From Verrucomicrobiota bacterium (GTDB taxonomy: Bacteria > Verrucomicrobiota > Verrucomicrobiia > Limisphaerales > JADLHS01), in contig JABFSR010000045.1 in NCBI GenBank assembly GCA_013140495.1, positions 825 through 64,824 of the forward strand: a DNA stretch of 64,000 nt, given 5' to 3'. A model generated the notes under the pieces. The model saw only the letters and a program-made list of their open reading frames with translations. It did not search any database and had not been told where the DNA came from. Below are positions 5,698 to 42,726 of the stretch, in pieces. Position 1 is the stretch's first letter; every line of letters starts with the position of its first letter. Both the position numbers and the translations under genes were made by a program.

Positions 5698-6092
5698 GGC
5701 TGGGGCGGGTGCGAATCATCTGGCAGGTAGCTGCAGTCAGGAATTATTCCGAATGCCGGTTTGGCGCGCCGATTTTTCAACCCGATCTTTTCCATGGATT
5801 CAAACGCCGATGTGCGCGGTGTTGGCATTATCTGGCACAGGTTCCGAATCAGACCCGCGAGGAAGAAGTGGACACTGGCTGGGCGTTGGCACAAACAGGC
5901 GACGTGCAGCAGGGCGCGGCCCAACGGGGTTTTGGAAAAGCTGACGGGCTTCCTTGGGCGACGAAAATTGCGCTGGCTACCCATTCGGAGCCCCAGGGGA
6001 TTTACGGTTCTTATCATATGCGATTCTTTCGGGCGTTGCGTTCTTGGTTGAACCAAAGCGGAATGGTAAGCGCCGGTCCGGCGGCCGGCTAT

Positions 6093-6110
6093 AAGGTGTT
6101 CACCCCATAT
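6093..6110 (+). promoter_or_regulatory. conserved box, site 4, upstream of the Kai operon
   Basis: AAGGTGTTCACCCCATAT, about 100 nt upstream of ATG 6213. Confidence 0.4.
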
Positions 6111-6212
6111 ACAAGGGGAAACGATTGTTCGATGTTTGGGTTGGATGGGTGGCTCCCCCCCCGTCGCGAGACCAAGCAGACCGGAGAGCCCCGCCAATGC
6201 TGGCAGGACAAC

Positions 6213-6911
6213 ATGAAACAAAAATTGATCGGGTTGTCACAACGATATGTGACGGCCCTACGAAAACACCTGAAACAGGGGCCCCGCGCGAGCTTGCAGC
6301 CAGCAGTGCGAGTGGGACGCCGGGCGGTTGCCTTGGGGATGGAGACATTGGAGCTAGCCCGCATTCATGAGCGAGCAATCACCGCTTTGGAAATATCCAA
6401 CAGCAAAAATGGATTTATCAAACGAGCGGAGATTTTTTTTACCGAAGCCCTCACTCCGATTGTGGAGACGCACCGTGCCGCGCGGCAGAGCAAGATTCAT
6501 CTGCTCCGGCTGAACGAGACGCTCAACCTCCGCTCGGTGGAACTTGCCGCCACCAACCGCCAGTTGAAGTGTGGCATTGTCCGGCGCAAAACCGTCGAAG
6601 CCGCGCTCAAGAAAAGCGGCGTGCATTACACCAGACTGTTGAAGGATTCCCTGCAACTCCAGGAAGGTTTGCGGCAACTGACGCACCAGGTGCTGGTGGC
6701 GCAGGAGGATGAACGCAAGAAGATCAGCCATGAACTTCAGGATGGGATCGCTCAGACTTTGCTGGGCATCAACGTCCGGCTGCTCGCCTTGAAAAAGGAG
6801 GCGTGGCTCAACACCAAGGGTCTCAAGAATGAAATCGCCACCACACAGCGGCTGGTGGTAAAATCGGCCAGGTCCGTCCGGCGGGTTGCCCGCGAATTCG
6901 GCCACTCATGA
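6213..6911 (+). CDS. HisKA_3 (DHp)-only histidine-kinase paralogue lacking the ATPase domain; phospho-His position is Gln
   Basis: Internal ATG of ORF 5709..6911. Collinear with the N-terminal 230 aa of the next gene (MKQKLIGLSQRYVTALRKHLKQGPRASLQPA vs MKARFSRRYQAALLTYLKQGSEASLQPA). H-box is ISHELQDGIAQ versus ISRELHDVIAQ. Ends at VAREFGHS*, where the paralogue continues FARELRPAVLDD. ATGA stop/start overlap with the next gene. Confidence 0.6.
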   Translation: MKQKLIGLSQRYVTALRKHLKQGPRASLQPAVRVGRRAVALGMETLELARIHERAITALEISNSKNGFIKRAEIFFTEALTPIVETHRAARQSKIHLLRLNETLNLRSVELAATNRQLKCGIVRRKTVEAALKKSGVHYTRLLKDSLQLQEGLRQLTHQVLVAQEDERKKISHELQDGIAQTLLGINVRLLALKKEAWLNTKGLKNEIATTQRLVVKSARSVRRVAREFGHS

Positions 6912-8038
6912 AAGCCAGATTTTCCAGACGCTATCAGGCGGCGTTGCTGACCTATCTCAAACAAGGCTCGGAGGCGAGCCTGCAACCGGCGCACGGCATG
7001 GGCCAGCACGCGCTGACTGCCGGCCTGCAGACGCTGGACATCGCCAAGCTCCATGAGCGCATTCTAATCACCCAGGTGTTGCCCGGCCAACCGCCCGGCA
7101 AACGCGCCAGGCTCATCAGACACGCGGGGACCTTCTTCACCGAGGCAATCACCCCGATCGCGAAAATTCATCCTGGCGCGCGGGATGCCGCTGTTCACCT
7201 GAATAGAATCGTCGAGATGTTGAGCCAGCGCACCGTGGAGCTGGCCGCTTCGAACCTGGATTTGGAACAGGAGATCACCCAGCGCAAGGCGGTGGAAGCG
7301 GCGCTCAAGAAAAGTGAACACCATTACAGCCAGTTGCTCGCCCAGTCGGATCGGCTGCAGCAACAATTGCGGCAATTGTCCCGCCAGATTCTCTCGGCCC
7401 AGGAGGAGGAACGCCGGGAGATCAGTCGCGAACTGCATGACGTCATCGCCCAGACCCTGACGGGCATCAACGTCCGGCTGGCCGCCCTGAAGAAAGAAGC
7501 GGCAATCAATACCAAAAGCCTCGACCGCAACATCGCACGCACGCAACGGCTGGTGGAAAAATCTGTGGACATCGTGCATCAATTCGCCCGCGAATTGCGC
7601 CCGGCGGTGCTGGATGATCTCGGCCTGATTCCCGCGCTCCATTCGTTTGCGAAAATCTTTTCCAAGCGGACGCACATCCGCGTTCACTTGAAGGCCTATG
7701 CGGGCGTTGAACAATTGGACGGCAACAAACGCACGATCCTCTATCGCGTGGCGCAGGAAGCACTCACCAATGTGGCCCGTCACGCGCAAGCCAGCCGCGT
7801 GGAAGTGAGCATCCAGAAATTGTCGGGCTGCATCTGCATGAAAATAACCGACGACGGCAAATCCTTCAGCGTGGAACGTGTCTTGCACGCCAATCGTGGC
7901 AAACGCCTCGGACTACTTGGCATGAGAGAACGCCTGGAGATGGTCGGCGGTAAATTTGCCGTCGAATCCGCGCCGGGCAAAGGCACCACCATTGAAGCAC
8001 AGCTTCCACTGGGTAAAGCCGCGCGGGGGGATCGTTGA
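6908..8038 (+). CDS. sensor histidine kinase, HisKA_3 + HATPase_c (NarX/DegS-type), cytoplasmic
   Basis: H-box SRELHDVIAQTL, N-box AQEALTNVARHA, G1 ITDDGKSF, G2 APGKGTT. No TM segments. Confidence 0.85.
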   Translation: MKARFSRRYQAALLTYLKQGSEASLQPAHGMGQHALTAGLQTLDIAKLHERILITQVLPGQPPGKRARLIRHAGTFFTEAITPIAKIHPGARDAAVHLNRIVEMLSQRTVELAASNLDLEQEITQRKAVEAALKKSEHHYSQLLAQSDRLQQQLRQLSRQILSAQEEERREISRELHDVIAQTLTGINVRLAALKKEAAINTKSLDRNIARTQRLVEKSVDIVHQFARELRPAVLDDLGLIPALHSFAKIFSKRTHIRVHLKAYAGVEQLDGNKRTILYRVAQEALTNVARHAQASRVEVSIQKLSGCICMKITDDGKSFSVERVLHANRGKRLGLLGMRERLEMVGGKFAVESAPGKGTTIEAQLPLGKAARGDR

Positions 8039-8067
8039 TGGCGTCCGTTAACCAAATCTTGAATTTT

Positions 8068-8112
8068 ATGAATCGAATCACTGTTCTGCTGACAGAAGAC
8101 TATGAAAACTAA
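8068..8112 (+). pseudogene. 14-codon stub resembling the N-terminus of a LuxR-type response regulator; overlaps the kaiC start
   Basis: ATGAATCGAATCACTGTTCTGCTGACAGAAGACTATGAAAACTAA = [14 protein letters not shown]. Compare RR at 11873 (GTGAAACGAATCACTGTTTTATTGGCGGACGACCAT = MKRITVLLADDH). It sits 29 nt after the kinase stop, the position the intact regulator occupies after the other kinase. Confidence 0.35.
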
Positions 8113-9862
8113 ACGTCCCAAGCCCACCACTCCGGCCACTCGTTTGCCCAAGTGTCCCACCGGCATCCAGGGACTTGATGAAATCACCGGCGGCGGATTG
8201 CCACGCGGACGGCCCACGCTGGTGTGCGGCGGCGCAGGTTGCGGCAAGACGTTGTTGGCTGCGGAATTTCTCGTGCGCGGCACGGTGCAGTTCGGCGAGC
8301 CGGGCGTGTTCATGGCTTTCGAGGAGACGGAGAAGGAGCTGACGGCCAACGTCGCGTCGCTCGGCTTTGATCTGACGGGCTTGATCCGGCGCAAAAAAAT
8401 TGTAGTGGACTACGTCCACATCGAACGCAGCGAATTCCACGAGAGCGGCGAGTATGACTTGGAAGGCTTGTTCGTCCGGCTCGGTCACGCGATTGATTCC
8501 ATCGGCGCCAAACGCGTGGTGCTGGACACGCTGGAGGTGCTGTTCGCCAGCCTGCCCAACGAGGCCATTCTGCGCAGCGAATTGCGCAGGCTCTTCCGCT
8601 GGCTCAAGGAGAAAGGTGTCACCGCCGTCATCACCGCCGAGCGCGGGCGTGAATCACTCACGCGCCACGGGCTGGAGGAATACGTGTCCGACTGCGTCAT
8701 CCTGCTCGATCACCGAGTCAATGACCAGATTGCCACGCGGCATCTGCGCGTGGTGAAATATCGCGGTGCGCTGCACGGCACCAACGAATTTCCGTTTCTC
8801 ATCGGCGACGAAGGCATCAGCGTCCTGCCGATTACGTCGCTGTCACTGAACCATAAAATCTCGGGTGAGCGGATTGCCACCGGCATCCCCCGGCTCGACG
8901 CGATGCTGGGCGGAAAAGGTTTCTTCCGTGGCAGCAGCATTCTGCTCACGGGCACGCCCGGCACCGGCAAGACCATTGTCGCCGCCAACTTTGCCCAAGC
9001 TGCCGCCCGGCGCGGGGAACGCGTGCTCTTTTTCTCGTTTGAGGAATCACCCGACCAGATCATCCGCAACATGCACTCCATCGGGTTGCGGCTGGATCCT
9101 CTGGTCAAGCGCGATCTGCTGCGGTTTCATTCGGCGCGGCCCTCGCTTTACGGTCTGGAAATGCATCTGGCCACGATGTTCAAGGAGATCGCCACGTTTC
9201 AACCTCAAGTTGTCATCATCGACCCCATCACCAGCCTGATGGACTCCGGCACCGATTCCGAAAGCAAGGGGATGGTGACGCGGCTGATTGATTATCTGAA
9301 GGGCGGACAAGTCACTTCGCTCTTCACCAGTCTGACGCAAGGCGGCCACTCACTGCAACAAAGTGAAATGGCCATGTCCTCGCTCATGGACTCCTGGCTG
9401 TTGTTGCAAGACTTCGAAGGCAACGGCGAACGCAATCGCGTGTTCTACGTGCTCAAGGCGCGCGGCATGGCGCACTCGAACCAGATTCGCGAGTTCCTGA
9501 TTTCGGACCGGGGCATTGACATCGTGGATGCTTACATCGGGGCCAGCGGCGTATTGACCGGCTCCGCGCGGGCAGCGCAGGGTGCCCTCGAAAAAGCCGC
9601 CGTGCTGGCCAGCCAGCAGGAAGCCGCCCGACTCAAGCGCGAAGTGGAGCGCAAACGCGCGGCGATCGAACGGCAAATCAGCGGGCTGCGCTCCGACTAC
9701 GAAAGCGAATCCGCGGAACTGCGGCGCATTGCCGATCAGGTCGGCACCAGTACGCTCATGCTGACCACCGAACAGGCGGCCTCCGGCATCTTGCGCCAGG
9801 CGGATACGAAGGTGGCGGCCAACAGGCGGGTCAACCACAGAAATGGGAAGGCGAGCGTATGA
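8102..9862 (+). CDS. kaiC: circadian-clock-type ATPase KaiC with C-terminal coiled-coil-like extension
   Basis: Two RecA-like halves. Walker A GGAGCGKT (CI) and GTPGTGKT (CII); catalytic EE pairs in MAFEETEKE and FSFEESPDQ. KaiC-type block [40 protein letters not shown]. About 65 aa longer than the canonical ~519 aa; the tail is heptad-like ([38 protein letters not shown]). Confidence 0.9.
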
Positions 9863-10185
9863 AAACAAAAACGGTGAAACGCCGGGCCGCCGCCCCGCGC
9901 CAGCCCGCCAAGCGCTGGCAACTGCGCCTTTACGTGATGGATACGACGCCCAAATCGCAGACGGCGTTCGCGAACTTGAAAAAGTTTTGCGAAACCCACC
10001 TCAAAGGCCGCTATCGCATCACGGTGATTGATTTGATGAAGCAGCCCCACCTTGCCAAAGGCGATCAAATCCTGGCCATCCCCACGGTGGTGCGCAAACT
10101 GCCGAAGCCCGTGCGCAACATCATTGGCACCCTTTCCGATACCGAACATCTGCTTGTGGGCCTGGATCTGCGCGCGGCGGGTTAA
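9859..10185 (+). CDS. kaiB: KaiB (thioredoxin-like fold), copy 1
   Basis: Core [77 protein letters not shown] overlap with the kaiC stop. Basic ~20 aa N-terminal tail [19 protein letters not shown]. Confidence 0.9.
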
Positions 10186-10200
10186 CAGAGACGTACGCCC

Positions 10201-10554
10201 GTGAAAACAAATAAAATAAAACGCGCGATCAAGGCTGGCGCGAAGTCCCCGGCTACCCGGCGCAAGAGCAAATACGTCCTGCGACTGTTCGTGGCGGGGG
10301 CCACCGACCGATCGCGCCAAGCCGTCCTGCGCGTCCGGGAACTGTGCGCGGCGGAACTGAAAGACAACTGCAAGCTCGAGGTGATTGACATCTATCAGCA
10401 GCCCAAACTGGCGAGAGAGAACCAGATCGTCGCGACCCCGACGCTTATCGTGGAATTCCCACCGCCGGTGCGCCGGTTCATTGGCAACCTGGCGAACATC
10501 ACAGGCCTGTTCGTCGAGTTGGACTTGATCAAAAAAGGTAAAATCGCACTTTGA
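10201..10554 (+). CDS. kaiB: KaiB (thioredoxin-like fold), copy 2
   Basis: GTG start. Core LRLFVAGATDRSRQAVLRVRELCAAELKDNCKLEVIDIYQQPKLARENQIVATPTLIVEFPPPVRRFIGNLAN. Basic N-terminal tail MKTNKIKRAIKAGAKSPATRRKSK. Confidence 0.85.
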   Translation: MKTNKIKRAIKAGAKSPATRRKSKYVLRLFVAGATDRSRQAVLRVRELCAAELKDNCKLEVIDIYQQPKLARENQIVATPTLIVEFPPPVRRFIGNLANITGLFVELDLIKKGKIAL

Positions 10555-11864
10555 AAACTGCCCGCCACCAACGCGTGAAACAAACGCAGAAACGCTTAAA
10601 TACTGAAAAGTTGAAATTTCAGTCTGTCAGCGTTTCAACATTTCAGCGTTTGACTGCGCGCCTGGCTGTCGCCGAGGAAACGCTCCGCGCCATCCGCAAC
10701 GGCGAGGTGGATACGGTGATGGTCGCGGGCAAAGCAGGCTCGCAAGTGTTCACGCTGAACGGGGCCGAACACGCCTACCGCGTACTCATCGAATCCATGA
10801 ACGAAGGGGCGCTGACGCTGACGTGTGGCAAGCTGATTCTTTACGCCAACCAGTGCTTCGCGAGAATGGTCAAATGCCCGCTGGAGCAGGTGACGGGCAG
10901 CTCTTTTCGCCGATTTCTCTCCGCTGCGGACCGGGCGACGCTCCGACCGCTCATGAAATGGCCCGGCAAATTCGGCTCGAAAATCCAGGTGCTGCTCAAG
11001 GCCGGCGACGGTTCGCAAATGCCGGTGCAAATCTCCCTTCGCCCAACGGCAAAGAATGGTTTCAACAGCGCGACCATCGGCATGGTGGTGACGGACCTGA
11101 CGGAGGCCCGGCGGACCGAGGAACTGCTGCGGGCCTTGACGCACCGCGTGGTGCAGGCACAGGAAACCGAGCGCGGGCGCGTGGCCCTGGAATTGCACGA
11201 CACCATCACCCAGATGCTCTGCGCCGTCCTCGTTCGCAGCCAGACGCTGGCGGAAAAACTTTCGGCGCGCGACGGGTCGGCGAAGGGAGAGGCGATCAAA
11301 CTTCGCGATCTGCTCGGCCAGACGGCCGAAGAAGTGGAGCGCATCTCCCGTAATCTGCGGCCCAGCGTATTGGACCACCTGGGTCTGGTCGCCGTCCTGC
11401 GCGACACCAGCACGGAGTTCGCGGAGCGGACGGGCGTGTCCGTCAAGCTGGCCTGCGTGCTGTTGACCGCGCGGTTGCCCGCCGACATCGAGTTGACGCT
11501 CTACCGCATTCTCCAGGAAGCCTTGAAAAACGTGGAGAAGCACGCCCGCGCCCGCCACGTTACCGTGTGCCTGAGGAAGCAGGCTGCCTTCGTTCAGTTG
11601 GTGATCAATGACAACGGGATCGGCTTTGACCCGGATCATCACCCGGCCAGACGAAAAGGAAAGGGCGGGCTTGGTCTGCTCGGCATGCGCGAGCGGGCGA
11701 CTTATGTGGGCGGCGCCCTCAAGATCAAATCCGTTCGCCGCGCCGGCCTTCACCGGGCCGTAGCCACTGGCCGCGGGTTGGACGAGGGCTTCGGCCCGGC
11801 GAAAGCCGGCACGGAAATCGAGGTGCGCATTCCCCTGCCGCCAAGGATCACGGCGGCCAACTGA
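10551..11864 (+). CDS. PAS-domain sensor histidine kinase, HisKA_3 + HATPase_c
   Basis: PAS-like LRAIRNGEVDTVMVAGKAGSQVFTLNGAEHAYRVLIESMNEGALTL, H-box ALELHDTITQ, N-box LQEALKNVEKHA, G1 INDNGIGF. The G2 region is interrupted by a 20-aa insertion. TTG at 10551 overlaps the kaiB stop. An alternative in-frame TTG at 10650 lies just after a low-complexity hairpin. Confidence 0.85.
   Translation: MKTARHQRVKQTQKRLNTEKLKFQSVSVSTFQRLTARLAVAEETLRAIRNGEVDTVMVAGKAGSQVFTLNGAEHAYRVLIESMNEGALTLTCGKLILYANQCFARMVKCPLEQVTGSSFRRFLSAADRATLRPLMKWPGKFGSKIQVLLKAGDGSQMPVQISLRPTAKNGFNSATIGMVVTDLTEARRTEELLRALTHRVVQAQETERGRVALELHDTITQMLCAVLVRSQTLAEKLSARDGSAKGEAIKLRDLLGQTAEEVERISRNLRPSVLDHLGLVAVLRDTSTEFAERTGVSVKLACVLLTARLPADIELTLYRILQEALKNVEKHARARHVTVCLRKQAAFVQLVINDNGIGFDPDHHPARRKGKGGLGLLGMRERATYVGGALKIKSVRRAGLHRAVATGRGLDEGFGPAKAGTEIEVRIPLPPRITAAN
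10604..10648. repeat. short-period low-complexity hairpin element at the kaiB/kinase junction
   Basis: ctgaaaaGTTGAAAtttcagtctgtcagcgTTTCAACatttcagcg, built from the words CTGAAA/TTTCAG and GTTGAAA/TTTCAAC. Confidence 0.6.
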
Positions 11865-11872
11865 ACTGACTT

Positions 11873-12550
11873 GTGAAACGAATCACTGTTTTATTGGCGG
11901 ACGACCATGTGATGGTGCGCGAGGGAATCCGCAACCGGCTCGAACTCGAAGACGACCTCGAAGTGGTCGGCGAAGCCGGAGACGGTCGCAAGGCGGTCGC
12001 CCTGGTCAAAAAACTCCGGCCCGCCGTGGTGTTGATGGACATCGCGATGCCGCTGCTTAATGGTTTGGAGGCCACCCGGCAGATTCGCAAAGACTTTCCC
12101 GACACCAAGGTGCTCATTCTCTCCGCGCACAGTCATGCCGCTTTCGTCAAGCAAGTGACCGGGTTGGGAGCCGCGGGATTTTTGCTCAAGCAAACCTCCT
12201 CCGACGTTCTGGTCACGGCGATTCGCGAAGTCCAAAAAGGAAACACATTTTTCAGCCCGGCCATTGCCAGTCACCTCCACGGTCGCGATCCGAAGTCGCT
12301 GGATCGAGGGGCGCAGTTCAAGAAGAAAAGCAACCACCTGAGTTCGCGCGAGGTGGAGGTGCTCCAATTGATTGCCGAAGGCCAGCCCAACAAACAAGTC
12401 GCCGCCGAACTGGGCGTGAGCTTCAAAACCGTGGACAAACATCGGCAGCATCTCATGGGCAAGCTCAACATCCATGACATCGCCGGTCTCACCCGCTACG
12501 CCATCGCCGAGGGAATCATCAAGAGCAATGTCCTGGTGACCATCAGCTAG
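11873..12550 (+). CDS. NarL/LuxR-family response regulator (REC + GerE HTH)
   Basis: REC: ITVLLADDHVMVREG..VVLMDIAMPLLNG..LILSAH. HTH: LSSREVEVLQLIAEGQPNKQVAAELGVSFKTVDKHRQHLMGKLNIHD. Starts 8 nt after the kinase stop. Confidence 0.9.
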   Translation: MKRITVLLADDHVMVREGIRNRLELEDDLEVVGEAGDGRKAVALVKKLRPAVVLMDIAMPLLNGLEATRQIRKDFPDTKVLILSAHSHAAFVKQVTGLGAAGFLLKQTSSDVLVTAIREVQKGNTFFSPAIASHLHGRDPKSLDRGAQFKKKSNHLSSREVEVLQLIAEGQPNKQVAAELGVSFKTVDKHRQHLMGKLNIHDIAGLTRYAIAEGIIKSNVLVTIS

Positions 12551-12754: not shown

Positions 12755-13573
12755 ATGAACATCACTCAAGAACCAAAACATACCGTCAGCAAACTCACGA
12801 GACTGAACCGCGCAGCGTCAAAAAAATTAGTTCCTATAGGTGCAGTTCTGATGGCCGCGCTGCTTTACAGCGTTTCCCCGGCAGCAGCCGAAGGCAGTCA
12901 TCGAAGCAGTCAAGGAAAGGGACCGACGCCAGTCAATCTTCGATCGGCCGGCAGTTTCGTGATTCTATCAAAATCAGGAATCACCGACGTCTATGCATCA
13001 GCTATTGTTGGAAATGTTGGAACGAGTCCAATCACCGGTGCAGCTCTTCTCCTGGCGTGCGATGAAGTGGTTGGGACAATCTACGCAGTTGATGCTGCCG
13101 GTCCGGCCTGTAGCGTGGCAGCCGCCAGCTTGTTGACCACGGCAGTCGGCGACATGCAAACCGCATACGACGACGCTGCTGGACGAAAATTCCCCACTGC
13201 TACTGAACTGGGGGCCGGAAATATTGGCGGGAAGACCATCACTCCCGGCCTCTACAAATGGAGCAGTTCGGTTCTAATACCCAATCGGGTCACGCTCAAG
13301 GGCGGCCCAAATGATGTCTGGATCTTCCAGATCGCGGGGAATCTCACCGTGGGCAACGGTATCGCAGTGACGTTGAGCGGCGGCGCCCAGGCCAAGAACA
13401 TCTTCTGGCAGGTCGCCGGCCAAACGACCCTTGGAACGACGGCTAACTTCAAGGGAATTGTATTGTGTAAAACATTGATTGCGATGAACACCGGCGCAGT
13501 GATGAACGGCAGAGCGCTGGCACAGACCGCAGTTACGTTACAGAAGAATGCCGTAATACAGCCAGCTAACTAA
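12755..13573 (+). CDS. secreted DUF3494 / ice-binding-like family protein, copy 1
   Basis: Signal-like LVPIGAVLMAALLYSVSPAAA, then the family signature LRSAGSFVILSKSGITDV..IVGNVGTSPITGAAL, PGLYKWSSSV, VWIFQIAGNLTVG, GGAQAKNIFWQVAG, NGRALAQTAVTL. Confidence 0.75.
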   Translation: MNITQEPKHTVSKLTRLNRAASKKLVPIGAVLMAALLYSVSPAAAEGSHRSSQGKGPTPVNLRSAGSFVILSKSGITDVYASAIVGNVGTSPITGAALLLACDEVVGTIYAVDAAGPACSVAAASLLTTAVGDMQTAYDDAAGRKFPTATELGAGNIGGKTITPGLYKWSSSVLIPNRVTLKGGPNDVWIFQIAGNLTVGNGIAVTLSGGAQAKNIFWQVAGQTTLGTTANFKGIVLCKTLIAMNTGAVMNGRALAQTAVTLQKNAVIQPAN

Positions 13574-14743: not shown

Positions 14744-14890
14744 ATGAATAGAACAAAGCTCTTGGGCGGCATAACGGTTCCGGTGTCAGGCAGCGTGCGG
14801 TTCTATCGTATTATCGTGGGCACAGCCTTCACCATTACGAGCATCACCATTTCCGGTGGCAACGTGGTAATCACCTGCTTTTATGATAAC
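14744..14890 (+). CDS. 48-aa ORF that is a free-standing copy of the C-terminal module of the preceding DUF3494 protein (possibly a gene remnant)
   Basis: Below the track cutoff. AAGGAGA sits 5 nt before the ATG. MNRTKLLGGITVPVSGSVRFYRIIVGTAFTITSITISGGNVVITCFYDNK aligns with RTITVPTSGDMQFYRLRSDTALTITGISLSGGNVEITYN. Confidence 0.3.
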
Positions 14891-15386
14891 AAATAAAATC
14901 TCGCAAGCGGGAGCGCCGGCCAGCACAGTCCGGCGATCCCAACCGAATCCACCCAAGCGGATTCTCGTGGTGGATGACGATCCGTCGCTCCGCCAGATTT
15001 ATACCGAAGTGTTGACTCATGCCGACTACGAGGTGGACACCGCCGAAGATGGAGCGGTCGCCTGGGACGCACTGCAGGTCAACGGCTATGATCTGCTGAT
15101 CACCGACAATAATATGCCGAAGGTGACCGGCGTTGATCTGCTCAAAAAGGTCCATGCCGCCCACATGACGCTGCCGGTCATCATGGCCACTGGCACCTAT
15201 CCCGCCGAGGAATTCAGCCGTTATTCATGGATCCAACCTGACGCCACGCTGCTCAAGCCCTATTCCATGGCGGAGTTTTTGGGAGCAGTGAAAGAAGTGT
15301 TGTGTGTGAACGACGATGTCAGCGCGGAGCTGACCCCGCCGCCAGTCTGGCAAATCCGACCGTCAGCAGCGTGCTTGCGGCTTTGA
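14883..15386 (+). CDS. single-domain (CheY-like) response regulator receiver
   Basis: RILVVDDDPSLRQIYTEVL..YDLLITDNNMPKVTGVDLLKKV..LPVIMATG..LLKPY. No output domain. Confidence 0.8.
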   Translation: MITNKISQAGAPASTVRRSQPNPPKRILVVDDDPSLRQIYTEVLTHADYEVDTAEDGAVAWDALQVNGYDLLITDNNMPKVTGVDLLKKVHAAHMTLPVIMATGTYPAEEFSRYSWIQPDATLLKPYSMAEFLGAVKEVLCVNDDVSAELTPPPVWQIRPSAACLRL

Positions 15387-15854: not shown

Positions 15855-16538
15855 ATGAAACCGAAACAAATTACGGTCCTGCTCGCGGAAGACCATACCA
15901 TCGTGCGCGAGGGGTTTCGCAAGATGCTCGAACTCGAAGACGACATTACAATCGTCGGCGAAGCGCAAGACGGCCGTCAGGCGGTTGCCCTGGTCAAAAA
16001 ACTTTGCCCCGCCGTGGTCTTGATGGACATCGCCATGCCCCTGCTCAACGGTTTGGAAGCCACGCGCCAGGTGCTCAAAGCCGTCCCCACCACCAAAATA
16101 ATCATCCTCTCGGCGCACAGCGATGACGCGTATGTCTCCAACGCGACCGAGTCCGGCGCGGTGGGCTTTCTGCTCAAACAAACCTCGGCCCACGACGTGT
16201 GCCGGGCCATCCGGGAAGTCCACCAGGGGAAAACTTTTTTTAGTCCTTCGATTTCCAAGCGTCAAGATCGGCTCCATCCGCAAGCGCCTGACCGCGTTGG
16301 AGCGCTCAAGAAGAAAGCCGCGCAATTGACTTCGCGCGAGATGGAAGTGCTCCAGCTCATCGCCGAAGGCAAGGCCAACAAGGAAACCGCGGTGGAACTC
16401 GGCATCGGCATGAAGACGGTCGAGAAGCATCGCGAGCATCTCATGGAGAAACTCGACATCCACGACACGGCCGGACTCACCCGTTACGCCATCAGTGCGG
16501 GCATCATCGAGAGCAGCGTGCAGTTGACGATTATCTAG
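15855..16538 (+). CDS. NarL/LuxR-family response regulator (REC + GerE HTH), paralogue of 11873..12550
   Basis: ITVLLAEDHTIVREG..VVLMDIAMPLLNG..IILSAH. HTH: LTSREMEVLQLIAEGKANKETAVELGIGMKTVEKHREHLMEKLDIHD. Confidence 0.9.
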   Translation: MKPKQITVLLAEDHTIVREGFRKMLELEDDITIVGEAQDGRQAVALVKKLCPAVVLMDIAMPLLNGLEATRQVLKAVPTTKIIILSAHSDDAYVSNATESGAVGFLLKQTSAHDVCRAIREVHQGKTFFSPSISKRQDRLHPQAPDRVGALKKKAAQLTSREMEVLQLIAEGKANKETAVELGIGMKTVEKHREHLMEKLDIHDTAGLTRYAISAGIIESSVQLTII

Positions 16539-17333: not shown

Positions 17334-17351
17334 ATGGGGTGAACACCCCAT
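17334..17351 (+). promoter_or_regulatory. conserved box, site 8: perfect 8-2-8 palindrome upstream of the heptad-repeat LuxR gene
   Basis: ATGGGGTGaaCACCCCAT, 39 nt upstream of ATG 17390. Confidence 0.5.
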
Positions 17352-17389: not shown

Positions 17390-18019
17390 ATGCCTTCAAA
17401 GGACTCTTTCAAAACAGAACGCCAACCGTCACCAGTCGAAGATTCCAACCCAACGGTGACGGGTGATGGAGGTGAAAAGAGGAAGAATCAAGACCCGGTT
17501 GTGGTCGCCGCCAAGACGCGGGTGGAGCAGGCCGAAGCCCGAACCGAGCAGGCCGAGGCGCGCACCGAGCAAGCCAAGACGCGGGCCGAATCTGCCGAGA
17601 CGCGCACTGAGCAAGCCGAAGCCCGGACAGAACAGGCAAAGACCCGGACGGAACAGGCGGAAGTCAGAACGGAGCAAGCCGAAACCCGGACAGAACAGGC
17701 GGAGACGGCGTTGGAAAATGCGGTTCATCCGGAAGGCAACTTGCGGCGGGATGTTTCCGCGCGGCTCCACAAAGAGTTTCCCGTCGCGGGAATTGACGAC
17801 CATGCCTATCCGCTCGAACAGTTGACGAGCCGCCAGCGCGAAATTCTCCAACTCATCGCCGAAGGTCAGAACACCAAACAGATCGCGGACATCCTCAAAG
17901 TCAGTCCCAAGACCGTCGAGTATCATCGCATGAAGTTGATGGCCGGCCTGAACCTTCATGATATTCCCGGCTTGGTGCGCTATGCCATGCGTGTGGGTTT
18001 GATAGCGCCTGAATGCTGA
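17390..18019 (+). CDS. LuxR/GerE-HTH transcription regulator with N-terminal heptad-repeat (coiled-coil) region and no receiver domain
   Basis: C-terminal LTSRQREILQLIAEGQNTKQIADILKVSPKTVEYHRMKLMAGLNLHDIPGLVRYAMRVGLI. The N-terminal half has ten 7-aa units of type (E/K)(A/T)RTEQA. A perfect 8-2-8 palindrome lies 39 nt upstream. Confidence 0.75.
   Translation: MPSKDSFKTERQPSPVEDSNPTVTGDGGEKRKNQDPVVVAAKTRVEQAEARTEQAEARTEQAKTRAESAETRTEQAEARTEQAKTRTEQAEVRTEQAETRTEQAETALENAVHPEGNLRRDVSARLHKEFPVAGIDDHAYPLEQLTSRQREILQLIAEGQNTKQIADILKVSPKTVEYHRMKLMAGLNLHDIPGLVRYAMRVGLIAPEC
17513..17722 (+). repeat. 10 x 21-nt in-frame tandem repeat encoding KTRVEQA EARTEQA EARTEQA KTRAESA ETRTEQA EARTEQA KTRTEQA EVRTEQA ETRTEQA ETALENA
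   Basis: Read directly. Units differ mainly at synonymous or conservative positions (gcccgaacc / gcgcgcacc / acgcgcact / gcccggaca / acccggacg ...). Confidence 0.9.
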
Positions 18020-19631: not shown

Positions 19632-20018
19632 ATGAAACACAACCATAACCATGACAATGCTCCGGGCGCTGCGCAGGAATTGATGCCGGTTCACTTTGAG
19701 TTTACTCATCTGACAGCCGCCGTCGTTTGCGTTGCGGGCACGTTCAACGACTGGCACCCCACCACTAAATCCATGCATCCAGCAGGGAGCGGTCATTGGA
19801 TGAAGGAAGCCTTCTTGCCACCCGGCAAATACGAATACTGTCTGGTGGTGGACGGCCAATGGATGCCCGATCCCCTCGCCCTGGAAACCGTGCCCAACCC
19901 ATTCGGCGGGAGAAACTCAATCTTGAATGTGGCTCGCTCCCCGGAAGCCGCCCATCGGGCGGATGCGCAAAATTTACCGTTGAAAAACACAAACAAAAAG
20001 ACAACTCGACAATTATGA
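19632..20018 (+). CDS. stand-alone CBM48 / AMPK-beta-like glycogen-binding (E-set) domain protein
   Basis: PVHFEFTHLTAAVVCVAGTFNDWHPTTKSMHPAGSGHWMKEAFLPPGKYEYCLVVDGQWMPDP. Internal ATG of ORF 19560..20018. Its stop overlaps the next start (ATGA). Confidence 0.75.
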   Translation: MKHNHNHDNAPGAAQELMPVHFEFTHLTAAVVCVAGTFNDWHPTTKSMHPAGSGHWMKEAFLPPGKYEYCLVVDGQWMPDPLALETVPNPFGGRNSILNVARSPEAAHRADAQNLPLKNTNKKTTRQL

Positions 20019-20320
20019 ACAAACAAACACAAGCAATCAGTAATGACGTAAGCCAGCTGGCCGAAGACGCGCGCGCCTTGCTCACCGCCACCGCCGATGT
20101 CGCCGGAGAAAAAGTCGGGGAGGCCCGCAAACGTCTTGCCGTCGCGCTGGAAAGCGGGAAGGAAATCTACAGTCGCGTTCGCGACAAGGCGGTCGAAGGC
20201 GCGAAGGTTGCTGACCAAACCGTCCGCGAGAATCCCTATCAAGCCATTGCCATCGGCGTCGGGGTTGGGGCGCTGATCGGCTATCTGGTCGGTCGCAGGT
20301 GTTCCCGCAACTGCGATTGA
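20015..20320 (+). CDS. ElaB/YqjD/DUF883 family membrane-anchored ribosome-associated protein
   Basis: MNKQTQAISNDVSQLAEDARALL..AGEKVGEARKRLAVALESGKE..VRENPYQAIAIGVGVGALIGYLVGRR (C-terminal TM anchor). Internal start of ORF 19796..20320. Confidence 0.8.
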   Translation: MNKQTQAISNDVSQLAEDARALLTATADVAGEKVGEARKRLAVALESGKEIYSRVRDKAVEGAKVADQTVRENPYQAIAIGVGVGALIGYLVGRRCSRNCD

Positions 20321-20327
20321 TTTCGTT

Positions 20328-20717
20328 ATGGAAGAATCCCCCGTCAGCTTCAAGCAACTGGCCGCAACCTCGAAACAGTTTGTGCGCCGGTTGTTGACCA
20401 TCGGTGAAAACCGGCTCGAATTGCTGACGGTGGAAGTGCAGGAGGAGCGTGAGCGCCTCCTGCACTCTATTCTGTTGGCGTTCGGCGTAGCGGCGTTCGG
20501 TCTGCTCGCTTGTATTTCGCTCACGGCAGCCATCGTGGTTTTGCTGTGGGCTTGGTCACCCGTGGCAGTCCTTCTGACACTGACCGCCCTTCACGGTGCC
20601 GCGGGGATTTGTCTTTACCGGCAACTCACCATCCGACTGCGTGACGCGCAGACGCTCGCCGCCACCCTCGATCAACTCCGAAAGGACCGCGCATGTTTGG
20701 AAAAAACCCTCGAATGA
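20328..20717 (+). CDS. YqjE-like (DUF1469, holin-X family) membrane protein
   Basis: LLTIGENRLELLTVEVQEERERLL followed by two TM spans. Same position as yqjE after yqjD in E. coli. Confidence 0.7.
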   Translation: MEESPVSFKQLAATSKQFVRRLLTIGENRLELLTVEVQEERERLLHSILLAFGVAAFGLLACISLTAAIVVLLWAWSPVAVLLTLTALHGAAGICLYRQLTIRLRDAQTLAATLDQLRKDRACLEKTLE

Positions 20718-23586: not shown

Positions 23587-24846
23587 TTATTTCGCGACAG
23601 GAACAGCCGGCAGATACACCGTGAACGTCGTGCCCTTTCCTTGCCGGGTTTCAACATGCAGCGCGCCGCCGCTCTCTTTCACGAGTCGCTGGACAATGTT
23701 AAGGCCGAGGCCTGTTCCCTGACGCGCATCCTTGGTGGTGAAGTAGGGCTGGAAAATCTTGGGCAACACCTCGGCGGGAATTCCCGGACCGTCGTCGCGC
23801 ACGCTGATCCGGACGAGCGGCGCTTCATTTTGAAAATTCTCCACGTTCAGCAGTCGTGAACCGGACGAATCCTTGAACTTCGTCAGATCGAGCGGTTCAT
23901 GCAGGCTTTCGCCTTCAATGTCCACGCGATGACTTTGCGGCGCGCACTGGAAAGCGTTCACCGTCAGGTTCAGCAACAACTGGATCACGTCGGTGCCGTT
24001 TACCTTTACGCCGATGTCCTGCGCGAGCGGCCTGTATTCAAATTCATTTTCCTGCAAGCTTGGATGCACACGGATCAAATGACCAAGGTCGGCAAGCAGT
24101 TGATTCACGCCCACCCTCGAGCCTTCGCCGGGTTGCCGGCGCAGGAAGCCCAGGTAACGGCGGGAAATCTCGATGCAATTGGTCACCTGCCGCGTCATGG
24201 TTCGCAGCTTGTCGTTCAGAAAAACAACCTCCTCACCTTCAAGCGTGGCACGATCATGGAGTCGCGCATTGAGAATCTGCAGGAAGCCGGAAATTACCGT
24301 GAGCGGGCCGTTGATGTCGTGAATGATGCTCGCATAAATATCACCCCGCGCCTGCGCCATCTTGCCGGCCACCTGCTGTTCCTGAAGCTCCTTCATCAAC
24401 TGTTCAAGCTTCTCAGTATTGTTATGAACTTCACTTTCCAACGTACGCCGTTGCATGGCGGCGGAGACGGCCGCGCGCAAAGTTGCCACGTCCCAGGGCT
24501 TGTTGATGTATTCGCTCGCCCGCAATCGCAGCGCCTGCCGGATGGTGTCCGTGGTCTCGAACGCGGTCATCATGATGACCTCGATGGTCGGGTCCACGAA
24601 CTTGATGCGTTCGAGCACCTCCACGCCGGACATGCCTGCCATGCGAATGTCCACCAACGCCACGTCCACCTTGTTATTCTTGGCAAGCTCGATGGCCGCC
24701 GCACCGTTGTCCGTGATCAGCAATTCAAAGTCATCCTTGAAAACCATCTTCAGCGAATCGCGCGGGCCGGGTTCGTCATCCACGACAAGCAGTGTGGCGC
24801 GTTGTCGTGTTGAAGCGGGCGGATTGTTGGAAGATTTTTGAGGCAT
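23587..24846 (-). CDS. hybrid receiver-histidine kinase (REC + HisKA + HATPase_c)
   Basis: REC TLLVVDDEPGPRDSL..VALVDIRMAGMSG..VIMMTA..INKP. H-box ASIIHDINGPLT. ISVRDDGPGIP, GTGLGLNIV, GKGTTFTVYLP. Internal ATG (MPQKSS..) chosen. Confidence 0.85.
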   Translation of the reverse strand: MPQKSSNNPPASTRQRATLLVVDDEPGPRDSLKMVFKDDFELLITDNGAAAIELAKNNKVDVALVDIRMAGMSGVEVLERIKFVDPTIEVIMMTAFETTDTIRQALRLRASEYINKPWDVATLRAAVSAAMQRRTLESEVHNNTEKLEQLMKELQEQQVAGKMAQARGDIYASIIHDINGPLTVISGFLQILNARLHDRATLEGEEVVFLNDKLRTMTRQVTNCIEISRRYLGFLRRQPGEGSRVGVNQLLADLGHLIRVHPSLQENEFEYRPLAQDIGVKVNGTDVIQLLLNLTVNAFQCAPQSHRVDIEGESLHEPLDLTKFKDSSGSRLLNVENFQNEAPLVRISVRDDGPGIPAEVLPKIFQPYFTTKDARQGTGLGLNIVQRLVKESGGALHVETRQGKGTTFTVYLPAVPVAK

Positions 24847-25098
24847 GGCTGCGACGCCGCATACTAACCAAACAATGAAATCGAACAAGCCCAAAGCCGG
24901 AGCGGCCCCGTTCCTGTTCCTTGTTCGCCCGACAAAGACCGTCAAGATTTGCCGCAACGGCAAAAATATCTTTTGAAATAATTTGAAATAAAGTTTGCAA
25001 GCGCACGCCGTTATCTCCTACAAACAAACGCAACCCGTTTGCGACGCCCAAAAGTTTCTCACATCGTAAACACAAAAATAGGATCGGGGGTGAGCAGC

Positions 25099-36479: not shown

Positions 36480-36759
36480 GCCGTTTCCGATTGCAGTTTG
36501 CTGTCCTAGAAGGAAGCGACAGCGACAAGGTAGCGGATCGTTATCATGGAAGTGACTGGCTTCTAATGTTCGCAGTTTCCTGCTTTCTTACATTCCACGA
36601 CATCCGCTCTCAAGTAACTTAGGCAGCCAAAACTGCTATAATTGGAGCAACCGCCCACCGGTCATTACTTGCCTAGCCACGTTGTCTGAACGGGAAACTT
36701 TTGCCCAGGGGCATTTTTACCGCGCACGCTTTTGCCGGTGATTGGCTGGTTTTCCCTTC

Positions 36760-36775
36760 TGGCACCTCCGCTGCT
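36760..36775 (+). promoter_or_regulatory. sigma-54-type promoter (-24/-12) for the flagellar operon
   Basis: TGGCACctccgCTGCT versus consensus TGGCAC-N5-TTGCW, with correct GG/GC spacing. It ends 27 nt before the flgB ATG. Confidence 0.45.
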
Positions 36776-36802
36776 TGGCGAGTTCCGAAATTGTGTAGCT
36801 GT

Positions 36803-37186
36803 ATGATTGACGCGCTGTTCAGCCAGACAAATTACGTGGCAACGAAAAAGATGCTCGACGCCACGGTGCTCCGCCATGAGGCCATCTCGAGCAATATCGC
36901 AAACGTCGAAATGCCTGGATACAAGCGCATCGACGTCAATCCGAATTTCTCCACCGAACTCAGCCACGCCATGCAATCCCCGGACGGCGCGCAGATTCAA
37001 GGATTGCAACCAAGCCTCACGGTGGACAGCTCTGCCGTTGCCACCGGTCGGGACGGCAACACCGTGCAGATCGAAAAGGAAATGATCCAGCTCACCCAAA
37101 ACATGGTTGCACACTCGCTCGAAACCCAGCTCATCACCGGCCAGTTGCTGCGCTTGCGCCTGGCCATCACCGGGCGGCCATCATGA
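36803..37186 (+). CDS. flgB: flagellar basal-body rod protein FlgB
   Basis: Internal ATG. MIDALFSQTNYVATKKMLDATVLRHEAISSNIANVEMPGYKR. Confidence 0.9.
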   Translation: MIDALFSQTNYVATKKMLDATVLRHEAISSNIANVEMPGYKRIDVNPNFSTELSHAMQSPDGAQIQGLQPSLTVDSSAVATGRDGNTVQIEKEMIQLTQNMVAHSLETQLITGQLLRLRLAITGRPS

Positions 37187-37199
37187 TCCAACCTGACCT

Positions 37200-37622
37200 A
37201 TGATCAACATTCTCAGCGGCATCAACAGCACCTCCTCCGCACTCGACGCCGAGCGCATCCGCATGGATGTCATCACGCAAAACATCGCCAACTCCACGTT
37301 GACTCACGATGTGGACGGCAAGCCATATCAACGCCGTCAGGTTGTCTTCGAGCGAATGTTGAACCAGCAACTCGGTGCCGATACATCTGCTGGTGGCGTC
37401 CAGGTCGCACGCATCATCAAGGATCCGCGGCCACCGCAGATGATTTACGAACCCGACAATCCGGAGGCCGATGCCAGGGGCATGGTTGCAAAACCCAACG
37501 TAAACATTCACGAGGAAATGGCCGACTTGATCGCCGCATCACGCTCGTTCGAGGCCAACCTCGCCGTGGTCCGCAACGCCCGTACCATGGCGCTGCAAAC
37601 CCTTTCGATCGGTAAACGCTGA
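37200..37622 (+). CDS. flgC: flagellar basal-body rod protein FlgC
   Basis: SALDAERIRMDVITQNIANS.. and C-terminal MADLIAASRSFEANLAVVRNARTMALQTLSIGK. Confidence 0.9.
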   Translation: MINILSGINSTSSALDAERIRMDVITQNIANSTLTHDVDGKPYQRRQVVFERMLNQQLGADTSAGGVQVARIIKDPRPPQMIYEPDNPEADARGMVAKPNVNIHEEMADLIAASRSFEANLAVVRNARTMALQTLSIGKR

Positions 37623-37638
37623 TCCGCACACAACCTGA

Positions 37639-38010
37639 ATGAACCCGATCTCAGCACTGCGCCTGCCGGTGATGCCCGACGCCTTGCGCGGCATCTCGCC
37701 GGACCTCGCACGGCCCACGATCCCGGTTTACGAACTTGGAAAATCAGCGGTTGCTGCGGGCGTACAGCCCGGTGGAATGTCCCCGGTCGCGGCATCGTTT
37801 GAAAGCACGCTGGGAAACCTTGTGGCCGAAGTCAGTGGCAAACAAGCCGCCGCGACCAACGCTGCGGCTGGCGTGCTCGGCAACCAGGGGGTTCCGCTTC
37901 ATCAGGCGGTGCTGGCGGCGGAAGAAGCCAGCGTGTCGTTTCAACTGATGGTGGAAGTGCGCAACAAGCTTTTGGAATCGTATCAGGAATTGATGCGGAT
38001 GCAGGTCTGA
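37639..38010 (+). CDS. fliE: flagellar hook-basal body protein FliE
   Basis: C-terminal LHQAVLAAEEASVSFQLMVEVRNKLLESYQELMRMQV. Confidence 0.8.
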   Translation: MNPISALRLPVMPDALRGISPDLARPTIPVYELGKSAVAAGVQPGGMSPVAASFESTLGNLVAEVSGKQAAATNAAAGVLGNQGVPLHQAVLAAEEASVSFQLMVEVRNKLLESYQELMRMQV

Positions 38011-38035
38011 CAGGGAAGTCGTAAAGGGATAACGA

Positions 38036-39628
38036 ATGAACAATGGATTAACGCAAATCGGCAGCCAGCTAAACAACATCTGGAGACATCTCGGCGCAGC
38101 CCAGCGGCTGACGCTTGTTGTCACCGGTCTCGCCGTGCTGGTCGGCCTTGGCGCACTCGCGTTCTGGTCGGGCAGTCCCGACTACGCGCTGCTGTACGGC
38201 AAACTCGATGAAGCGGAAGCGTCGAAGGTTGTCGCCGCACTCGACGACGCCAAAGTGCCCTACAAGATCAACCGCAACGGCGGGGCCATCTCCGTACCTT
38301 CGGACAAGGTTCATCTCATGCGGATGCAACTTGCGGCCAAAGGCATTCCGCGCGGCGAAGGCGTGGGCTTCGAGATTTTTGACAAACCCAACTTCGGCAT
38401 CTCCGATTTCGTCCAACGCGCCAACTACCTCCGCGCTGTCCAGGGCGAACTGGCCCGCACCATCAGCCAGGTGGATTCCATCGAGACAGCCCGCGTGATG
38501 ATCGTCATGCCTGAAAACAGGCTGCTCGTTGACAACCAGAAGAAACCCACGGCATCCGTGTTCGTGCGTGTGCGCGGCAATTCCCAACTGACTCAGCAAA
38601 ACGTCAACGCCATCCGTTTCCTCGTTGCCAACTCGGTTGAAGGCCTCGCTGCCAACAACGTCAGCGTCATGGACAGTCAGGGCAGCGTCCTTTCCTCGAA
38701 TAATGAAAACGATTCCGTTGCCGGTCTTTCCAGCACTCAACTGACCGCACAGCGCGAACTTGAACAATATCTCTCGAAGAAGGCCGAGGACATCCTCAGC
38801 AAGGCGCTTGGTTCAGGTCAATCCATTGTGCGCGTGTCCGCTGAAATCAATTTCGACTCTCTGACGAGCGTCGAGGAAAAATACGACCCCGATGGACAAG
38901 TCATCCGCATTCAGACCATCAATGACGAGAAAACGGATTCCATCACATCCTCGCCCGGTGGCGCAGTTGGCATTTCCTCCAACTCCGCCGAAACCAACTC
39001 CGTCGCCACCGTTCCGGTCAACAACAACAAGATGGCCAAGAAAGTTACGAACAATCAGTACGAAATCAACAAGACCATCAGCAACATCATGCACACACCA
39101 GGCGGTTTGAAGCGTTTGTCCGCTGCCGTATCCATTGCGGCCAACACCACCGGCTCAGGCACGAATCGCGTGGTCACACCACGTTCGCCCGAAGAAATGC
39201 AAAAGATCCGCCGCATGGTCATGGGTGCGCTCGGCATTCATGAAGGCACCGATTCAGGGCGCTCAGACCAGCTCACTGTTGAGGAAATGCCGTTCAATGA
39301 TCAACCGGTCGTCGAAATCGCCCAGCAGATGGAGAAGCAGCAGAAACAACAGCTCTGGTGGGACATTGCGCGCAATGCCGTTTATCCCGTGATCGCCTGC
39401 ATCGCGCTTTTCATGTTTTGGCGCGCGTTCAAGAAAACTTCCATGGATCAGATTCCACTCGGCGTCCCCGTCGGTGAGTTCGCGGCCGGACGCAATGGCG
39501 GCAACGGTCACTCTGCTCCCGGCGATTCCGGCGCTGTTACTGTCGAAGTGTTGAACCGCCTCATCCGCGAGAACCCGCAAAACATGTCGCACGCCATCCG
39601 CTCATGGATGGCCGAGGACAGGAAATAA
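38036..39628 (+). CDS. fliF: flagellar MS-ring protein FliF
   Basis: YALLYGKLDEAEASKVVAALDDAKVPYKI, VHLMRMQLAAKGIPRG, NYLRAVQGELARTI. N- and C-terminal TM segments. Confidence 0.9.
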   Translation: MNNGLTQIGSQLNNIWRHLGAAQRLTLVVTGLAVLVGLGALAFWSGSPDYALLYGKLDEAEASKVVAALDDAKVPYKINRNGGAISVPSDKVHLMRMQLAAKGIPRGEGVGFEIFDKPNFGISDFVQRANYLRAVQGELARTISQVDSIETARVMIVMPENRLLVDNQKKPTASVFVRVRGNSQLTQQNVNAIRFLVANSVEGLAANNVSVMDSQGSVLSSNNENDSVAGLSSTQLTAQRELEQYLSKKAEDILSKALGSGQSIVRVSAEINFDSLTSVEEKYDPDGQVIRIQTINDEKTDSITSSPGGAVGISSNSAETNSVATVPVNNNKMAKKVTNNQYEINKTISNIMHTPGGLKRLSAAVSIAANTTGSGTNRVVTPRSPEEMQKIRRMVMGALGIHEGTDSGRSDQLTVEEMPFNDQPVVEIAQQMEKQQKQQLWWDIARNAVYPVIACIALFMFWRAFKKTSMDQIPLGVPVGEFAAGRNGGNGHSAPGDSGAVTVEVLNRLIRENPQNMSHAIRSWMAEDRK

Positions 39629-39634
39629 CCGCGC

Positions 39635-42715: not shown

Positions 42716-42726
42716 CCTGAAACATT

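Follow-up and report, generated by a model that had tools for sequence, protein, structure and literature searches.

Does a KaiBC timer outside the cyanobacteria carry its own route to gene expression? We know of no established route from the state of a non-cyanobacterial KaiBC timer to gene expression and, to our knowledge, the partner kinase in the proteobacteria studied so far has neither a known regulator nor a known DNA target. The question is raised by a 64,000-nucleotide (nt) stretch of contig JABFSR010000045.1 (the window; G+C ~57%), whose host is a verrucomicrobium, subdivision 3 / Pedosphaera-like. Here kaiC and two kaiB genes lie among genes of a NarL-type two-component system, and a preliminary description of the locus had proposed that seven genes form a KaiBC timer wired to HisKA_3 kinases and a LuxR-type regulator. 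We found that the window is a fusion of two modules, with a four-gene Kai cassette placed between the kinase ORF2 and the regulator. The reading that we favour, with moderate confidence, is that the KaiBC timer cassette is embedded in the two-component operon and is subject to feedback from it. The seven genes are as follows.

6213..6911, + strand: ORF1, pseudo-kinase of 232 amino acids with an RsbU_N-like N-domain, a coiled coil and a HisKA_3 DHp, and no HATPase_c
6908..8038, + strand: ORF2, soluble histidine kinase with an RsbU_N-like N-domain, HisKA_3 and HATPase_c; His177, ELHD
8102..9862, + strand: KaiC of KaiC2 / R. sphaeroides type, 586 amino acids; matched in Pfam, NCBIfam and PDB
9859..10185, + strand: KaiBa, the paralogue closest to R. 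sphaeroides KaiB (8FWJ)
10201..10554, + strand: KaiBb, the divergent KaiB paralogue, which always adjoins the PAS kinase
10551..11864, + strand: PAS-HisKA_3-HATPase_c kinase (Pfam), carrying ELHD
11873..12550, + strand: RR1, NarL/LuxR-type response regulator with REC and GerE domains, 65% identical to RR2 (see below)

The listing of open reading frames (ORFs) in the window places all seven on the + strand at 6213-12550, overlapping or at most 63 nt apart. ATGA overlaps join ORF1 to ORF2 (6908-6911) and KaiC to KaiBa (9859-9862), a TTGA overlap joins KaiBb to the PAS kinase (10551-10554), and gaps of 63, 15 and 8 nt separate ORF2 from KaiC (8039-8101), KaiBa from KaiBb, and the PAS kinase from RR1. 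These ORFs and junctions are exactly as the preliminary description gave them, and Pfam and NCBIfam agreed with every one of its domain calls for the seven products. Its start of ORF1 near 6093 had to be revised: among the 120 best homologues listed, to which all figures on ORF1 homologues refer, 81 are exactly 232 amino acids long, and the starts at 6093/6096 were dropped in favour of ATG 6213. The packing of the seven genes is not due to chance, because the orthologous clusters in other genomes are joined just as tightly. A scan for consensus promoters and terminators was uninformative (4 found vs 2.0 expected; 12 vs 11.7), and tRNA and Rfam scans of the sequence gave no matches.

The product at 8102 is a true KaiC, as had been proposed; the alternative of a generic RecA/RadA-like ATPase is ruled out by its match to NCBIfam NF006799 (719.7 bits; cutoff 408) and by its closest solved structure, R. 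sphaeroides KaiC (8DBA, 638 bits). PF06745 matched the protein twice (E 1.7e-110). Walker A motifs are present at 43 (GGAGCGKT) and 284 (GTPGTGKT), with a catalytic Glu-Glu (FEE, at 73 and 313) in each RecA-like domain, and the score against the KaiC1 model TIGR02655 (338.7 bits) lies below the equivalog cutoff of 546.25. Residues 15-546 align to 8DBA (to chain residue 535), coiled-coil tail included. The KaiC2 / KaiC-RS clade is defined by a C-terminal extension of ~50 amino acids forming a coiled coil, and the window KaiC has an extension of ~90 amino acids that aligns to the 8DBA tail. Its phosphosite pair, Ser426-Ser427 (MSSLMD at 425-430), is Ser-Ser and not the Ser-Thr of KaiC1; in the 8DBA alignment it falls on the two Ser residues that the S413E/S414E mutant 8FWI has as Glu-Glu. 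Judged by these sequence features, the window KaiC is a member of the KaiC2 clade. For this clade Pitsawong et al. reported that the tail builds a dodecamer, holds the A-loop in an exposed state and removes the need for KaiA, and that KaiB and the ATP:ADP ratio drive an hourglass in the R. sphaeroides KaiBC system (PMC10076222).

No KaiA, SasA-like, CikA-like or OmpR-type regulator was found among the 37 window ORFs scanned by Pfam, a set that left out some ORFs past 45 kb; with this scope, the stated absence of kaiA, sasA, cikA and rpaA holds. That the cassette is KaiA-less is explained by the coiled-coil tail, which in this KaiC clade takes the place of KaiA (PMC10076222). HisKA_3 kinases acting on a GerE-type regulator are the sole output path encoded locally, again as had been supposed.

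Both KaiB proteins carry the KaiB domain PF07689 (83.9 bits for KaiBa and 73.7 bits for KaiBb; gathering cutoff 27), and their top PDB matches are KaiB chains. They scored below the cutoffs of the cyanobacterial models NF006798 (91.2 and 75.5 bits; cutoff 110) and TIGR02654 (88.3 and 71.5 bits; cutoff 145.3). The two genes are old paralogues: identity is 73% and 64% inside classes a and b and 37% across them, the order KaiBa-then-KaiBb is kept in 58 of 58 two-KaiB loci, and loci with a single KaiB (n=17) carry the b type only. The a type clusters with R. sphaeroides KaiB.

We then analysed how far this arrangement is conserved. With one genome taken per GTDB species, 514 genomes held a KaiC relative; the best 80 of these were analysed, in which KaiC is 84-91% identical and which are nearly all metagenome-assembled genomes (MAGs) of Verrucomicrobiota. 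Enough DNA was available downstream of KaiC at 60 loci and upstream at 61. KaiC was followed by KaiB and then a PAS-HisKA_3 kinase at all 60 loci, with two KaiB genes at 46. Directly upstream of KaiC, a second HisKA_3 kinase was seen at 19 of the 61 loci, and a truncated paralogue of the ORF1 type was also present at six. All seven genes stand in exactly this order in the genomes of five other species (L005, L020, L027, L057, L078) and in a metagenome contig, so that the suggested conservation of the gene neighbourhood is borne out both for the KaiB and PAS-HisKA_3 kinase genes and, in six other genomes or contigs, for the whole order.

The upstream kinase keeps the same HisKA_3 core while its sensor varies, being RsbU_N-like, one or several PAS domains, or REC; kinases with PAS or REC sensors were seen at L006, L008, L018, L019, L021, L024, L026, L030, L036, L056, L057, L060 and L068. 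Four of the MAGs (L019, L020, L022, L043) are labelled Bifidobacteriaceae, Chitinophaga pinensis or Acidiferrales although their KaiC is 86-88% identical to the verrucomicrobial protein, for which a binning or labelling error, rather than transfer, is the most likely explanation.

A survey from the ORF1 side, using three long contigs and a metagenome scan with 4.5-10 kb of downstream DNA available, gave a different picture. At 25 of 26 loci the genes run ORF1-ORF2-regulator-REC(s) with no Kai gene within the available downstream DNA, and the Kai cassette was inserted at just one (L120). ORF1 and ORF2 as Kai-specific components are ruled out by this survey, and the earlier view of a kinase and a kinase decoy as flanks dedicated to the timer has to be given up, since both belong to a separate module. 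The window is a fusion of two modules because ORF1-ORF2-regulator-REC stands alone elsewhere with an RR2-type regulator, and its arrangement is a minority form. The Kai cassette itself (KaiC-KaiBa-KaiBb-PAS-HisKA_3 kinase) behaves, in these comparisons, as a portable module.

These results bring in an alternative, namely that the two systems are merely juxtaposed: the cassette would have landed there by chance, the PAS kinase would serve RR1 and ORF2 would serve RR2, and the two would share at most a transcript. The largely Kai-free occurrence of the ORF1-ORF2-RR2-REC module, the lack of ORF1/ORF2 in most Kai loci, the variable upstream kinase slot and the two paralogous regulators of the window are all in its favour. 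However, at least six further genomes or contigs keep the fused arrangement, with junctions of 0-73 nt. Together with the regulators and the palindrome described below, this makes juxtaposition without cross-talk unlikely in our view.

ORF1 is a pseudo-kinase because it has Gln in place of the phospho-acceptor His and ends right after the DHp, with no ATP-binding domain. The preliminary description had recognized a DHp-only kinase paralogue; the acceptor His is also replaced, window ORF1 reading ELQD. Among its homologues, which are 77-86% identical, 116 of 120 have Gln in the His column and 117 of 120 share the same end point right after the DHp. The possibility that ORF1 is a recent pseudogene or a duplication remnant is ruled out by this conservation of length, end point and His-to-Gln change. 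Kinase-kinase inhibition via DHp heteromers is the principle of systems of the RetS-GacS type. By analogy, a non-phosphorylating paralogue might switch off or adjust an active kinase by pairing with the DHp of the latter, as we propose for ORF1 and ORF2, but ORF1 differs in being minimal and soluble and in having no ATP-binding domain.

Orthologues of ORF2 in Kai-free loci are 72-83% identical to it. At one such locus (L087, 9696-10824) the orthologue is called as two genes, an RsbU_N part of 99 amino acids and a kinase core of 272 amino acids, which may reflect a frameshift or an assembly error.

The N-domains of ORF1 and ORF2 raise the question of whether they might take the place of KaiA. 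RsbU_N matched 17 of 17 N-domains of these types above the 25.5-bit cutoff (best E 6.5e-8), and a profile of the N-domain retrieved the B. subtilis RsbU N-domain 1W53 at E 0.011. Apart from KaiA itself, the RsbU N-domain is stated in the literature to be the sole known case of the KaiA C-domain fold, and the two have equivalent partner-binding sites (PMC11372060). The RsbU_N-like domains might thus have the KaiA/RsbU four-helix fold, dock on KaiC and tune or read its phosphorylation; in function, the cassette would in that case have a stand-in for KaiA. In Foldseek searches with the ORF1 model, KaiA C-domains ranked first (1Q6A, prob 0.96) at a non-significant E of 0.33, while the better model of the ORF2 N-domain (predicted template modelling score, pTM, 0.78) gave neither KaiA nor RsbU among the top 50. 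Against such docking also stand the lack of any sequence match to the KaiA family in ORF1 or ORF2, the Kai-free setting of both genes at nearly all loci of the ORF1-side survey, and a KaiC clade that needs no KaiA. We consider this explanation very improbable, and keep to the reading of a KaiA-less cassette embedded in the two-component operon.

The PAS kinase would link the timer to a transmitter. Its N-terminal module (amino acids 32-190) consists of a motif, AEETLRAIRNGEVD, followed by PAS, and is homologous to the kinases encoded after kaiB in alphaproteobacteria: the module is 38% identical over 80 amino acids to the Cereibacter kinase (E 1e-12), and its identity to the Pararhizobium kinase is 31% in an alignment of 411 columns (E 1e-30). 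The gene orders and transmitters compare as follows.

Cereibacter sphaeroides KD131: kaiC-kaiB-PAS kinase, transmitter HWE_HK
Pararhizobium: kaiC-kaiB-kaiB-PAS kinase, transmitter HisKA-HATPase-REC hybrid
Window: kaiC-kaiBa-kaiBb-PAS kinase, transmitter HisKA_3

A conserved Kai-coupling sensor with a swapped output would fit these data, because the N-terminal modules are homologous while the transmitters belong to three families. In P. putida, direct contact between KaiC and the PAS domain of the kinase next to it has been shown (bioRxiv 10.1101/2022.01.26.477890).

The ATP-binding domain of the window PAS kinase also contains an in-frame insertion of 63 nt at 11742-11804 (21 amino acids, AGLHRAVATGRGLDEGFGPAK). 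It is not found in 14 aligned orthologues and is lineage-specific. The insertion is single-copy in the window, is flanked by a GCCGGC direct repeat and forms a strong hairpin (-56.5 kcal/mol, z -4.9). By its appearance this is a short palindromic insertion that left the reading frame intact.

Downstream of RR1 the same strand encodes a pair of ice-binding-like proteins, a REC-only protein, another regulator (RR2) and a GerE-only protein.

12755..13573, + strand: ice-binding-like protein 1 (PF11999), predicted to be secreted, with a signal-like N-terminal segment
13622..14608, + strand: ice-binding-like protein 2 (PF11999; Pfam)
14883..15386, + strand: single-domain response regulator (REC only), acceptor Asp present
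15855..16538, + strand: RR2, NarL/LuxR-type regulator, Response_reg and GerE
17390..18019, + strand: GerE-HTH protein lacking a receiver, with tandem repeats making up the N-terminal half

ORF2 and the PAS kinase combine ELHD with HATPase_c, and RR1 and RR2 combine Response_reg with GerE, as expected of NarL-family two-component systems. The preliminary description had taken the product at 11873 (RR1) as the regulator of the system. It is indeed a REC-GerE regulator, but a paralogue of the one usual in relatives. In most Kai loci an RR2-orthologous regulator (70-89% identical in most) comes after the PAS kinase, and in Kai-free loci the regulator after ORF2 is 80-82% identical to RR2 and 64-67% to RR1. 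RR1 as the conserved cognate regulator is thus ruled out, relatives having an RR2 orthologue in that slot. The functional unit would extend past 12550 because RR2, the orthologue of most relatives' regulator, sits at 15855-16538, and the region is probably a composite signalling island that reaches to ~18 kb. An RR2-type orthologue serves both most Kai loci and the Kai-free loci, which argues against two systems that merely lie side by side.

As for the other genes, most related loci have REC-only genes after the regulator, and ~8 have homologues of the ice-binding-like genes there; the ice-binding-like genes may be members of the regulon. The repeats of the GerE-only gene (17525-17700) comprise ~8 copies of a 21-nt / 7-amino-acid unit (RTEQAEA-like) and probably form a coiled coil.

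Comparison of the intergenic regions of the island revealed an 18-bp palindrome, ATGGGGTG-WW-CACCCCAT. There are just two matches in the 64-kb window (position weight matrix score >12 bits).

6091..6108, no strand: palindrome ATAAGGTGTTCACCCCAT, with 2 mismatches to the consensus, 113 nt upstream of the ORF1 start
17334..17351, no strand: palindrome ATGGGGTGAACACCCCAT, a perfect match, 47 nt upstream of the GerE-only gene

We surveyed 165 loci (1.71 Mb) for this element, allowing up to 3 substitutions, and found 207 sites in 115 of the loci, as against 1-3 sites in shuffled sequence; 170 of the 207 sites have at most 2 substitutions. Seventy-four sites lie upstream of ORF1 orthologues (median 109 nt to the start), 30 upstream of REC-only genes (median 46 nt), 17 upstream of KaiC (median 150 nt), 6 upstream of ice-binding-like genes and 5 upstream of GerE-only genes. 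The genes downstream of 54 sites (at most 2 mismatches) that have no labelled gene nearby form no large new family, and the palindrome was not found in the alphaproteobacterial Kai loci. Because it sits before operons encoding GerE-HTH regulators, the palindrome is likely to be the operator of a GerE-type regulator. Binding of the regulator to it would therefore bring about autoregulation and place kaiC under the same control. That one palindrome precedes both kinds of operon again speaks against the absence of cross-talk, and favours the embedded timer with feedback.

On this favoured reading the system could work as follows, by analogy with R. sphaeroides KaiBC for its first steps. KaiC would autophosphorylate constitutively without KaiA, and a low ATP:ADP ratio would lead to KaiB binding and KaiC dephosphorylation, so that the timer would report energy state or day-night state in the manner of an hourglass. 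The PAS kinase would sense the state of KaiC/KaiB via its N-terminal PAS module and phosphorylate a NarL-type regulator, the adjacent RR1 and/or RR2. ORF2 would provide a second input, two kinases thereby converging on one regulator family, and ORF1 would modulate ORF2 by DHp / N-domain heterodimerisation. REC-only proteins may act as phosphate sinks, and the regulator, on binding the palindrome, would set the timer within a transcriptional feedback loop.

Several observations weigh against this reading. The activity of every island protein is predicted from homology. A REC-GerE regulator comes next after the PAS kinase at only about half of the Kai loci (29/60), and only 16 of 39 KaiC-first loci have the palindrome. 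The ORF2-KaiC gap of the window has no palindrome, and co-transcription from the ORF1 promoter is assumed. Candidates for the protein that binds the palindrome are RR2, RR1 and the GerE-only protein, and the 21-amino-acid insertion might impair the window PAS kinase. Additionally, the hosts are not known phototrophs, and a day-night role is uncertain.

This last point bears on what the timer reads. The wiring may be the same while KaiBC serves as a sensor of stress or energy state (culture age, ATP:ADP ratio, oxidative or osmotic stress), as has been proposed for KaiC homologues of Legionella and Pseudomonas. According to the record titles, the hosts are heterotrophic Verrucomicrobiota of soil, peat, groundwater and lakes; KaiC phosphorylation in Pseudomonas tracks culture age and not light cycles (bioRxiv 10.1101/2022.01.26.477890), and R. 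sphaeroides KaiBC is itself driven by ATP:ADP (PMC10076222). Against such a role, KaiC is highly conserved among the best 80 of the 514 genomes, and the tail and both KaiB proteins are kept as in an hourglass, but these data do not separate the two roles. We regard a stress or energy-state sensor as a serious possibility, if somewhat less than an even one. A bolder version of the embedded timer is an island that by itself mirrors the entire output side of the cyanobacterial clock, in a phylum that is not photosynthetic. Here a KaiA-independent, post-translational KaiBC timer would govern two HisKA_3 kinases, of which one is tuned by the His-less ORF1, and these kinases would have opposing effects on a single NarL-type regulator. 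Through ATGGGGTG-WW-CACCCCAT the regulator would exert feedback on its operon and on kaiC, coupling the timer to a transcription-translation loop, with REC-only sinks and secreted ice-binding-like proteins as outputs. We put this forward tentatively, and think it rather doubtful in its full extent.

How unusual is this wiring? An operon of kaiC, kaiB and a PAS/kinase gene is known from Rhodopseudomonas palustris and R. sphaeroides (PMC4794148), and KaiC-kinase-regulator neighbourhoods are known from Pseudomonas (bioRxiv 10.1101/2022.01.26.477890). The window has the former order, with short gaps on one strand. The claim of a novel wiring therefore fails for the operon as such, known in proteobacteria, and stands for the transmitter and regulator family and for the embedding. 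A search of the literature on Kai systems in Verrucomicrobia returned nothing relevant.

The likeness to R. sphaeroides and R. palustris extends to a KaiC of the same clade (54% identity by tblastn) with Ser-Ser and a coiled-coil tail. KaiBa is closest to R. sphaeroides KaiB (8FWJ), the order of kaiC, kaiB and a homologous PAS kinase is shared, and kaiA is absent. However, the transmitter is HisKA_3 in the window and HWE_HK in R. sphaeroides, the window operon has a second, divergent KaiB and a NarL-type DNA-binding regulator, and its cassette is embedded in another two-component operon, with a common palindrome, in another phylum. The Pseudomonas clusters also combine a KaiC homologue, a PAS kinase and receiver proteins in an operon, but they have no KaiB and their regulators are without DNA-binding domains, whereas the window has two KaiB, GerE-HTH regulators and REC-only proteins.

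With cyanobacterial KaiABC the window shares the KaiC-KaiB core and possibly, as proposed here, two kinases acting on one transcription factor and feedback on kaiBC. It differs in having, among the 37 ORFs scanned, no KaiA, no SasA kinase with a KaiB-like domain and no CikA pseudo-receiver kinase, in a regulator of NarL/GerE rather than OmpR type, and in a KaiC2 rather than KaiC1. Synechocystis KaiA3-KaiB3-KaiC3 is alike in tying a Kai system to NarL-family parts and to the KaiA/RsbU helical fold (PMC11372060). KaiA3, however, is a NarL-type receiver with a KaiA-like domain, while the window has an RsbU_N-like domain on a HisKA_3 kinase, whose contact with KaiC is hypothetical. What the window adds to these known systems is its transmitter and regulator family, a cassette embedded within another two-component operon, a fixed KaiB pair, a conserved pseudo-kinase and a candidate operator.

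A timer, kinases, DNA-binding regulators and a candidate operator are here encoded together and conserved across many genomes, so that a small set of purified proteins and a single DNA site could be enough to test the whole proposed path. The cassette retains the sensor PAS domain while the transmitter family changes. Our survey also shows the Kai system to be widespread in Verrucomicrobiota, a phylum abundant in soil and freshwater for which no rhythm biology is known.

Three further features of the window were noted. A receiver and HATPase_c hybrid kinase (23587-24963, - strand) is 32% identical to ORFs within 8 kb of KaiC at 5 related loci. A DUF883 protein and a holin-X-like small membrane protein (19796-20717) have homologues within 8 kb of KaiC at 2-3 related loci. 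A flagellar cluster at 36701-45487 (+ strand), with FliF, FliG, FliH, an FliI-type ATPase and neighbours, is unrelated to the Kai island.

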